A stretch of 64,000 bases of DNA from an uncultured Bacilli bacterium (lineage in GTDB: Bacteria > Bacillota_I > Bacilli_A > RFN20 > DUOF01): positions 321,351-385,350 of the forward strand of contig CAKPSD010000001.1 in NCBI GenBank assembly GCA_934183255.1, written 5' to 3'. Shown here piece by piece: positions 1,430 through 1,549 of the stretch (the first letter of the stretch is position 1; every line of letters starts with the position of its first letter). Under the pieces are notes generated by a model that was not told where the DNA came from, did not search any database, and saw only the letters and a list, made by a program, of their open reading frames with translations. Both the position numbers and the translations under genes were made by a program.

Positions 1430-1549
1430 TTAGTCTTTAGAGTGACTATCTTGCCATGAATCGTTAGCCCATGGTGTATGTGACCAAGAATCTTTTCCAG
1501 ACATTTCTAATACTTTATGATATTTCATCATTATTCTTAATCCGTTCAT
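1430..1549 (-). CDS. 39-aa peptide MNGLRIMMKYHKVLEMSGKDSWSHTPWANDSWQDSHSKD; candidate radical-SAM substrate (RiPP precursor-like)
   Basis: Hand-translated; not in the ORF track (too short). Its ATG overlaps or abuts the TAA of the upstream rSAM gene (TAAATG). The GAGGAGGTG SD is embedded in the rSAM 3' end. The C-terminal half holds three Trp in repeated D-S-W-x-[H/D] / P-W-A-N-D contexts. A terminator follows. Confidence 0.5.
   Translation of the reverse strand: MNGLRIMMKYHKVLEMSGKDSWSHTPWANDSWQDSHSKD

Follow-up and report, generated by a model that had tools for sequence, protein, structure and literature searches.

What is encoded by a very small, tryptophan-rich open reading frame (ORF) that abuts a radical S-adenosylmethionine (SAM) enzyme gene, and, if its product is the substrate of that enzyme, what modification does it receive? 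This question is raised by positions 1430-1549 (minus strand) of a 64,000-nucleotide stretch of contig CAKPSD010000001.1 from an uncultured Bacilli bacterium, hereafter called the window. A preliminary description of the ORF had taken its 39-aa product, MNGLRIMMKYHKVLEMSGKDSWSHTPWANDSWQDSHSKD, for a precursor peptide with a leader and a core (split between MNGLRIMMKYHKVLEMSGKD and SWSHTPWANDSWQDSHSKD), in which each aromatic core residue could be crosslinked to the residue at +2. The location, the sequence, the triads W22-S-H24, W27-A-N29, W32-Q-D34 and H36-S-K38, the strings DSWSH and DSWQDSH, and the absence of Cys were all present as described. The reading as leader plus core was borne out by the analysis below, and a radical-SAM/SPASM gene that had not been cited lies directly upstream (1550-2635, minus strand). 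We conclude that the two genes most likely form a previously undescribed module for a peptide synthesised by the ribosome and modified post-translationally (RiPP), best explained, with a probability of about 0.6, by triceptide-like Trp crosslinking by the adjacent maturase.

The Trp density of the ORF alone is within chance: when the window is translated in all six frames, at least three Trp per 13 stop-free residues occur at about 9 separate places. A profile search with the peptides gave 23 clusters, none of them named, and with strain variants added, 29 distinct homologous peptides were obtained. All 29 fit the pattern (M)NG-x-x-[IV][ILM] ... W-x(3,4)-W-x(1,2)-D-x-W-x-D-[SN]-[HY]. In the leader (residues 1-21, MNGLRIMMKYHKVLEMSGKDS; 1487..1549, minus strand), MNG-x-x-[IV][ILM] is kept, with N2 and G3 invariant, and the remainder is variable. 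In the core (residues 22-39, WSHTPWANDSWQDSHSKD; 1433..1486, minus strand; a single copy of the motif in the window), W22, W27, D30, W32 and D34 are invariant (alignments A2 and A3; window numbering) and S35-H36 are nearly so. The preliminary description had suggested aligning orthologous peptides, and it is indeed the three Trp that are invariant and most of the leader that varies. Between the window and its closest homologue, L001, the 13 core codons compared comprise 8 identical, 5 synonymous and 0 non-synonymous ones, and the 21 leader codons 4 identical, 3 synonymous and 14 non-synonymous ones. Judged by this conservation and codon pattern, and not by Trp density, the 39-codon ORF is a real gene with strong purifying selection on its C-terminal part, and the alignment of a variable N-terminal with an invariant C-terminal part corresponds to the pattern of a RiPP precursor. 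Very likely, then, the ORF product is a true precursor peptide and the substrate of the radical-SAM enzyme encoded beside it.

The residues around the three Trp are conserved to different degrees. The residue at W32+2 is Asp in 29/29 peptides. At W22+2, His is found in the window clade and Glu, Gln or Asp elsewhere; at W27+2, the window clade has Asn, Tyr or Ser, with the invariant Asp at +3, and Asp is at +2 elsewhere. Consequently, the earlier proposal of W-x-[HNDK] partners at +2 stands for W32 and fails as a general rule for W22 and W27, whose +2 residues vary by clade. In each of the 29 peptides, 3-4 residues lie between consecutive Trp; Ser or Thr is kept between W22 and W27, and Ser is also kept in D-S-H. 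The proposed fourth triad, H-S-K, did not hold up as a feature, since most relatives stop one residue past the equivalent of His36 (...DSHR) and the tail is variable even among near-identical strains (SHSKD, SHPKN, SHHKD, SHSR). Likewise, the basic, Met/Lys-rich leader is confined to the window lineage, with acidic leaders in most relatives. A thioether product, which had been excluded for lack of Cys, is also unlikely across the family, because only 1/29 cores contains a Cys, at a variable position. No Lys is conserved across the 29 peptides, and the sulfatase motif C/S-x-P/A-x-R is absent from the peptide.

Maturase and peptide genes constitute one transcription unit, in this order, closed by a terminator. 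The maturase stop codon TAA (1552-1550), as read from the sequence, abuts the peptide ATG at 1549, and the Shine-Dalgarno sequence GGAGGT of the peptide gene (1557..1562, minus strand) lies 7 nt before this ATG within the last maturase codons, so that peptide translation is coupled to that of the maturase. Equivalent sequences (AGGAG, GGAGG or GGGGG) precede the peptide ATG in L001, L002 and L003. On the 3' side of the peptide stop codon (TAA, 1432-1430), an intrinsic-terminator-like hairpin, ACGGAAAA...UUUUCCGU, is followed by UUUUUU (1349..1386, minus strand); its RNA fold has -17.9 kcal/mol (z = -3.3), and 0/200 shuffles were equally stable. A simple terminator scan missed this hairpin because it has few G-C pairs. 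L001 and L002 carry a similar GC hairpin plus T-run after the peptide gene. The sequence upstream of the maturase gene contains the ribosome-binding site AAGGAG (2645..2650, minus strand), at a distance of 9 nt from the ATG at 2635. A candidate sigma-70-like promoter, TTGCAA-17 nt-TATAAT (2663..2691, minus strand; 28 nt upstream of the maturase ATG), came from a consensus scan with 10/12 matches, a type of match that is no commoner here than in shuffled sequence. An overlapping plus-strand ORF (1471-1590) was dropped, as it is antisense to the conserved minus-strand peptide and maturase genes.

Enzyme homologues were sought in a collection of 5.8 billion proteins. The family is small (P0002-P0020, 32-63% identity), and beyond it the score falls to proteins resembling anaerobic sulfatase-maturating enzymes (anSMEs) at about 30% identity. 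In all 15 of the independently sequenced loci examined, whose enzymes are 35-63% identical, the peptide gene and a homologous radical-SAM gene are adjacent (loci counted: window, L001, L002, L003, L004, L087, L088, L089, L090, L091, L096/97, L098/99, L100, L104). The peptide of L001 is MNGLKIMASLMRARFESSDSNWSHTPWANDSWQDNYENRNS; those of L002 and L003 read ...GWSHTAWSYDCWQDSHSK and ...NWNHTAWANDNWSDSHRP, and those of L087-L091 ...SWHESWPDGWRDSHR or ...QWHESWGDSWTDSHR. L104 was found by a DNA-pattern scan of JGI metagenomes, which gave this 1 true new member and 5 chance matches. A scan of species-representative genomes with the enzyme alignment matched mostly anSMEs, the only family member being L004, a Desulfitobacteriaceae metagenome-assembled genome in which the peptide gene is upstream of the enzyme gene; the window genome was not among the matches. 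Viral contigs scanned with the peptide profile gave no match, and tblastn of plasmids and phages with the enzyme gave only anSME-level matches (25-28% identity).

The clades are not alike in gene order. The enzyme gene precedes the peptide gene in the window clade, the two abutting or overlapping by 14-23 nt; in the compact-core clade, the order is arginase-enzyme-peptide or peptide-arginase-enzyme-second radical-SAM gene; and in the long-leader clade, the peptide gene comes first. The genomic contexts are otherwise unrelated, often with integrases, a resolvase or transposases nearby. Enzymes at least 43% identical to that of the window go with W-x-H-T-x-W-x-x-D cores and those at most 39% identical with W-x-x-S-W-x-D cores; enzyme and peptide thus co-diversify.

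The maturase gene encodes 361 aa with Pfam Radical_SAM (4.1e-15) and SPASM (1.9e-8) domains, the motif C14-x3-C18-x2-C21, and an HGGEP motif. Eight C-terminal Cys are invariant (C250, C258, C273, C314, C317, C323, C327 and C339) and align one-to-one with both auxiliary-cluster ligand sets of anSME. Moreover, the invariant pair C273-D274 aligns with C276-D277 of anSME, D277 being the proposed catalytic base of that enzyme. The protein is without a RiPP recognition element (RRE) domain and, at about 360 aa, is as compact as anSME and the triceptide synthase ChlB. Against the anSME model TIGR03942, the window enzyme scored 176.6 bits and its relatives 177-182, with the cut-off at 349. Other NCBIfam scores were also below the cut-offs (in parentheses): DynA 150 (450), YhhB 137 (445), GrrM/OscB 125 (310), AmcB 112 (425), FxsB 100 (370) and XyeB 64 (450), and DarW, PapB and DarE were among the below-cut-off matches as well. 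The nearest proteins outside the family (P0024, P0029 and others) are true anSMEs that score 390-515 bits, above the cut-off. By sequence, the best PDB matches were anSME (8.8e-24) and ChlB (2e-20). The AlphaFold2 (AF2) model of the maturase (pLDDT 92) gave a TM-score of 0.85 to anSME and 0.85 to ChlB (9gm3, full length), and 0.62-0.77 to the RRE-containing CteB and SuiB (0.62-0.66 for SuiB alone). Partial profiling by catalytic-site proximity (PMC10288494) found Tyr at position 1, as in ChlB (Phe in anSME), and Asp at position 5, as in anSME. The maturase is thus a member of the compact, RRE-less superclade of anSMEs, enzymes that form three-residue cyclophanes (3-CyFEs) and maturases of daropeptides, and belongs to none of its named families.

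Given that the partner of this enzyme is a dedicated, co-evolving and Trp-rich peptide, crosslinking of the peptide is favoured, and Trp-centred crosslinking is the probable modification. In its favour, the below-cut-off NCBIfam matches include the cyclophane formers DynA, YhhB, GrrM/OscB, DarW, AmcB, FxsB and XyeB, and the maturase fold fits the triceptide synthase ChlB as well as it fits anSME. Triceptides are defined by aromatic-X-X motifs in which the aromatic ring is crosslinked to a C-beta by such enzymes (PMC11499958, PMC12912966). Following the established triceptide-synthase mechanism (PMC11499958), the short leader would be recognised by the RRE-less enzyme, probably through its N-terminal MNG-x-x-[IV][ILM], and SAM would be reductively cleaved at the C14/C18/C21 cluster to give a 5'-deoxyadenosyl radical. 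This radical would then take a side-chain hydrogen, most likely from C-beta, of the residue that follows each invariant Trp by 2-3 positions (H24; N29 or D30; D34), and the resulting carbon radical would add to the indole ring. The ring would re-aromatise while the electron exits through two auxiliary Fe-S clusters held by the eight conserved SPASM Cys; a base would be needed, a candidate for which is the invariant D274, the neighbour of C273. The predicted product would carry up to three small, triceptide-like Trp-centred cyclophane rings, each with a loss of 2 Da (-6 Da in total). Leader removal and export, if any, would be provided by unlinked functions. Whether every ring would be a canonical triceptide ring, i/i+2 and aromatic-to-C-beta, is a more tentative matter, on which we are rather doubtful.

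Several points weigh against triceptide-like crosslinking. The type of crosslink, its sites and the mass change are all predictions; the maturase does not reach the curated cut-off of any named cyclophane-synthase model, and anSME ranks first among its NCBIfam matches. Furthermore, the Trp partners are at no fixed offset (Asp at +3 or +2 of W27; His, Glu, Gln or Asp at W22+2), and the motifs can be read in the opposite direction too, as the D-x-W before W32 is invariant. No protease or exporter is linked to the gene pair in the window. An AF2 enzyme-peptide fusion (unpaired rows) placed the peptide without confidence (pLDDT 26-58) and was not used.

These points leave room for other chemistries on the same substrate. 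An anSME-like two-electron oxidation or another non-cyclising side-chain change, for example conversion of Ser35 or of the conserved Ser/Thr preceding W27 to an aldehyde or ketone, or an oxidation or decarboxylation of the invariant Asp residues, with the Trp serving recognition or product function, would agree with the best NCBIfam and PDB sequence matches, with the nearest relatives outside the family being bona fide anSMEs above the curated cut-off, with the retention of all eight anSME cluster Cys and the aligned Asp, and with the Ser/Thr kept between W22 and W27 and in D-S-H. We nevertheless consider it improbable, because family members reach only about half of the anSME cut-off, the peptide is without a sulfatase motif, the conserved Ser/Thr are also at no fixed offset, and the most strictly kept residues are the three Trp, which are typical of cyclophane RiPP cores and needless for Ser or Asp oxidation. 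Nor does the top match to anSME decide the chemistry, because DarE, which forms cyclophanes, also has anSME as its nearest relative when full-length similarity is considered (PMC10288494). If the product is crosslinked, the topology could be another one, namely larger Trp-Trp rings, daropeptide-like ether (C-O-C) bridges or N-C links through His. Bridging between Trp would tolerate the one-residue shift in W-W spacing between clades, over which the Trp stay invariant, and the near-invariance of H24 and H36 is in line with links through His, an N-C link between His and Tyr being present in dynobactin. DynA, DarW and DarE are among the below-cut-off matches, and triceptide and daropeptide maturases are of common origin (PMC12912966). 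However, the daropeptide motif aromatic-X-aromatic is absent, with the Trp 4-5 residues apart, and a pure Trp-Trp scheme does not explain why invariance extends to D30 and D34 as fully as to the Trp; we hold such topologies to be similarly improbable.

Other readings deny the peptide the role of a secreted bioactive product, or of a substrate altogether. The minimal two-gene architecture without exporter or immunity gene, the core rich in Trp, His and Asp, and the neighbouring NAD-salvage genes would suit a precursor of a small peptide-derived cofactor or metal binder, made in the manner of pyrroloquinoline quinone or mycofactocin. This is very improbable, as the neighbours are not conserved with the cassette (they are kept at empty sites, and the genes at other loci are unrelated to them), the further enzymes needed by cofactor pathways are not linked, and presence or absence in close strains suits an accessory trait and not a cofactor. 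Finally, that the ORF is no substrate, and either arose by chance or encodes a small subunit with a regulatory or accessory role downstream of an orphan radical-SAM gene, has hardly any probability left. Three Trp in 13 residues does arise by chance several times in the six-frame translation, and the peptide matched no family in Pfam and NCBIfam with E up to 1, but the conservation of 29 distinct peptides with only synonymous changes in the core effectively refutes this view. The Shine-Dalgarno sequence and terminator are also conserved, adjacency to the enzyme gene is kept in both gene orders, and a variable N-terminal part followed by a C-terminal part without variation marks a RiPP precursor and not a folded subunit.

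The linkage might also be one not yet described, a candidate being a Trp-to-Asp/Glu side-chain crosslink in three- or four-residue rings or a decarboxylative variant, giving a compact tricyclic W/D scaffold to which sister clades would add an HD-arginase acting on a C-terminal Arg, with a maturase lineage apart from anSMEs and the named cyclophane synthases. We regard this as a rather unlikely outcome. The searchable literature, queried with core strings and with triceptide, cyclophane, arginase and Trp-Asp topics, gave no description of the family; similarity networks already in print may nonetheless contain it as a node without a name. If the module is placed among the radical-SAM cyclophane-type RiPPs, what is new is the distinct enzyme lineage, the core motif, the reversed and coupled gene order, and the minimal mobile architecture.

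In sister clades, a further gene accompanies the maturase. An arginase-fold gene (PF00491) is found beside it in 7/7 loci whose peptides end in ...SHR or ...SHRP (L003, L087, L088, L089, L090, L091 and L100), with coordinates 2811-3572 in L003, 2282-2995 in L087, 2079-3026 in L088, 2097-3014 in L090, 1343-3004 in L091 and 6013-7665 in L100. The best PDB relatives of the protein are agmatinases, and its fold family suggests arginase activity. In L091 the protein carries a fused HD domain, and the L100 protein, of similar length (550 aa), may also be HD-fused. No arginase-fold gene is present at the well-flanked loci with peptides ending in ...SHK (L004), ...SHG (L096-99) and ...SHSKD (window), the window lineage having Lys in place of the C-terminal Arg. 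Since W-R-D, with its internal Arg, is also found where no arginase is encoded, the C-terminal Arg is the likely target and would be converted to ornithine, as in other RiPPs (PMC12257519). OspR of landornamide is a peptide arginase in a radical-SAM RiPP pathway. Biphenomycin-like peptides also combine a radical-SAM crosslinker and a peptide arginase in a RiPP pathway (PMC12257519); unlike these pathways, the window cassette is without an arginase and without an oxidative enzyme dependent on multinuclear non-heme iron (MNIO), and its peptide ends in ...SHSKD.

Some of the sister clusters (L091, L100 and L003) are larger than the two-gene window cassette. Extra radical-SAM genes flank the maturase gene in L091 (1-968 and 4067-5032), L100 (8821-9774) and L003 (6782-7572), one of them with a SPASM domain and one without, and L003 also has a methyltransferase/histidine-phosphatase fusion and a HAD gene. 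A 707-aa nitroreductase-YcaO fusion is encoded just upstream of the Trp-rich peptide gene in L100 (2184-4655) and L101 (1800-3923), followed in L100 by a 51-codon ORF. This fusion may belong to another RiPP system without relation to the first, or may be a further tailoring enzyme; at this locus, a Y1 transposase is inserted between the peptide gene and the arginase-maturase genes. In L002, a convergent alpha/beta-hydrolase gene with prolyl-oligopeptidase (S9)-like matches lies after the terminator (1261-1977, minus strand), on a contig too short to judge linkage. S9 proteases process some cyclophane RiPPs (PMC12957482).

Comparison of the window with related strains by BLASTN delimits the module. 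The L092 flanks are about 91% identical to window positions 3477..2711 and 1320..353, and window positions 2710..1321 are replaced by 24 bp (L092 4667-4690). The segment absent from L092 is a two-gene cassette of 1,390 bp (1321..2710) with promoter, maturase, peptide and terminator, so that the candidate promoter at 2663..2691 falls within the inserted segment. The same 24-bp junction is present in L093 and L095, and gene calls place pnuC directly beside the DEDDh-exonuclease gene in 4/4 loci, L092-L095; the empty site is between pnuC and the promoter of the exonuclease gene. L092, L093 and L095 are gut-metagenome contigs, L092 and L095 from Hadza samples, and these cassette-less loci, with flanks of about 91% identity, keep the synteny nrtR-pncB-galE-pnuC-exonuclease-murC. 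Neither a target-site duplication nor terminal repeats are obvious at the junctions of the cassette. The gene pair is the unit of inheritance, and the cassette is an indel between strains. As such, the module would be accessory and horizontally mobile. Its presence or absence among close strains and its mobile-element neighbours point to an accessory trait, perhaps with a competitive or signalling role.

Next to the cassette, the NAD-salvage set (2699-7046, minus strand) comprises genes for a Nudix/NrtR-like regulator (6156-7046) and a nicotinate phosphoribosyltransferase (4720-6153), and pnuC (2699-3376), with galE (3406-4404) sitting within the set. Because they are retained in cassette-less strains, these genes are probably functionally unlinked to the cassette. 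A 47-codon ORF, MNKNNYSYNPKKQDPNKVKKCCCESKYDPKPFDANKSNKYSNYNKSN (4584-4727, plus strand), is antisense to the 3' end of the phosphoribosyltransferase gene; it may be real because a gene of the same size was called at the matching L092 site (2652-2795). In L092, an extra gene (5671-6918) for a 415-aa protein with no Pfam match lies between the exonuclease gene and murC. The window strain is without it (cf. L084), and it is a second indel in the same neighbourhood. Farther away in the window, a 672-aa predicted secreted protein (7837-9855, minus strand) has a duplicated N-terminal module rich in Trp and Cys, in which …EW.YDEWSPWNT…YEREYLG..C……YRDR… is present twice.

If triceptide-like Trp crosslinking is correct, the module would be a very small new RiPP family from uncultured human-gut and other anaerobic Firmicutes, consisting of a 33-55 aa precursor and one enzyme of about 360 aa. 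Its Trp/Asp core is unusual, its leader has about 20 residues, and the window clade has the two genes in reversed order with coupled translation. A system so small, with a short leader and no RRE, should be easy to express heterologously and would lend itself to the engineering of constrained peptides. The role of the product in the gut can be approached through a natural comparison of strains that carry the cassette with strains that lack it, and tailoring through one of clades with and without the arginase. More broadly, the sequence space between anSMEs and cyclophane synthases would hold peptide-modifying enzymes unnamed by NCBIfam 2026 and Pfam 2025.

How does this module compare with known systems? 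Its best sequence and fold match is anSME (TIGR03942; PDB 4K36-4K39), with which it shares the eight Cys and the Cys-Asp pair, and the chemistry proposed here also starts with C-beta hydrogen abstraction on a peptide substrate. Unlike anSME, however, it reaches half the curated cut-off, and its partner is a dedicated 33-55 aa peptide in place of a sulfatase, with no C/S-x-P-x-R motif. Sactipeptides and ranthipeptides differ from it in that the core has no conserved Cys donors and the maturase fold is nearer to anSME and ChlB than to CteB. In the streptide type (StrB, SuiB), a radical-SAM/SPASM enzyme joins an sp3 side-chain carbon to a Trp ring in a short peptide of human-microbiome Firmicutes (PMC9389541). 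The present module likewise pairs a radical-SAM/SPASM enzyme with a short peptide and is predicted to form a C-C bond to a Trp ring, whereas SuiB has an RRE and a distant fold (TM 0.62-0.66), and the conserved Lys is missing from the 29 peptides.

Dynobactin and darobactin have in common with the module a Trp-initiated core and maturases whose resemblance to anSME extends over the full length. Among the NCBIfam matches DynA ranks second, yet far below its cut-off, and dynobactin is known to contain a C-C link between Trp and Asn (PMC10288494). In contrast to daropeptides, which are from Proteobacteria, the hosts here are Gram-positive, Clostridia-like gut organisms, and there is neither an aromatic-X-aromatic motif nor a linked transporter gene. 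From triceptides and 3-CyFEs, the module differs in a maturase that is below every named 3-CyFE cut-off (XyeB, GrrM/OscB, FxsB, YhhB and AmcB) and equally close to anSME, in a window-clade precursor gene that is downstream of, and translationally coupled to, the maturase gene, in a leader of only about 20 aa, and in an acidic partner (Asp/Glu) at an offset of +2 or +3 for a crosslink that is here a prediction. It resembles them in its short precursor, whose C-terminal core has several candidate aromatic-X-X motifs (the +2 residue being invariant for W32 only), and in its single RRE-less radical-SAM/SPASM maturase of about 360 aa with the fold of ChlB. Multiple motifs per peptide are also found in the triceptide MicA, which has three rings (PMC12912966), and minimal clusters such as the two-gene cassette of the window are common in the triceptide class.

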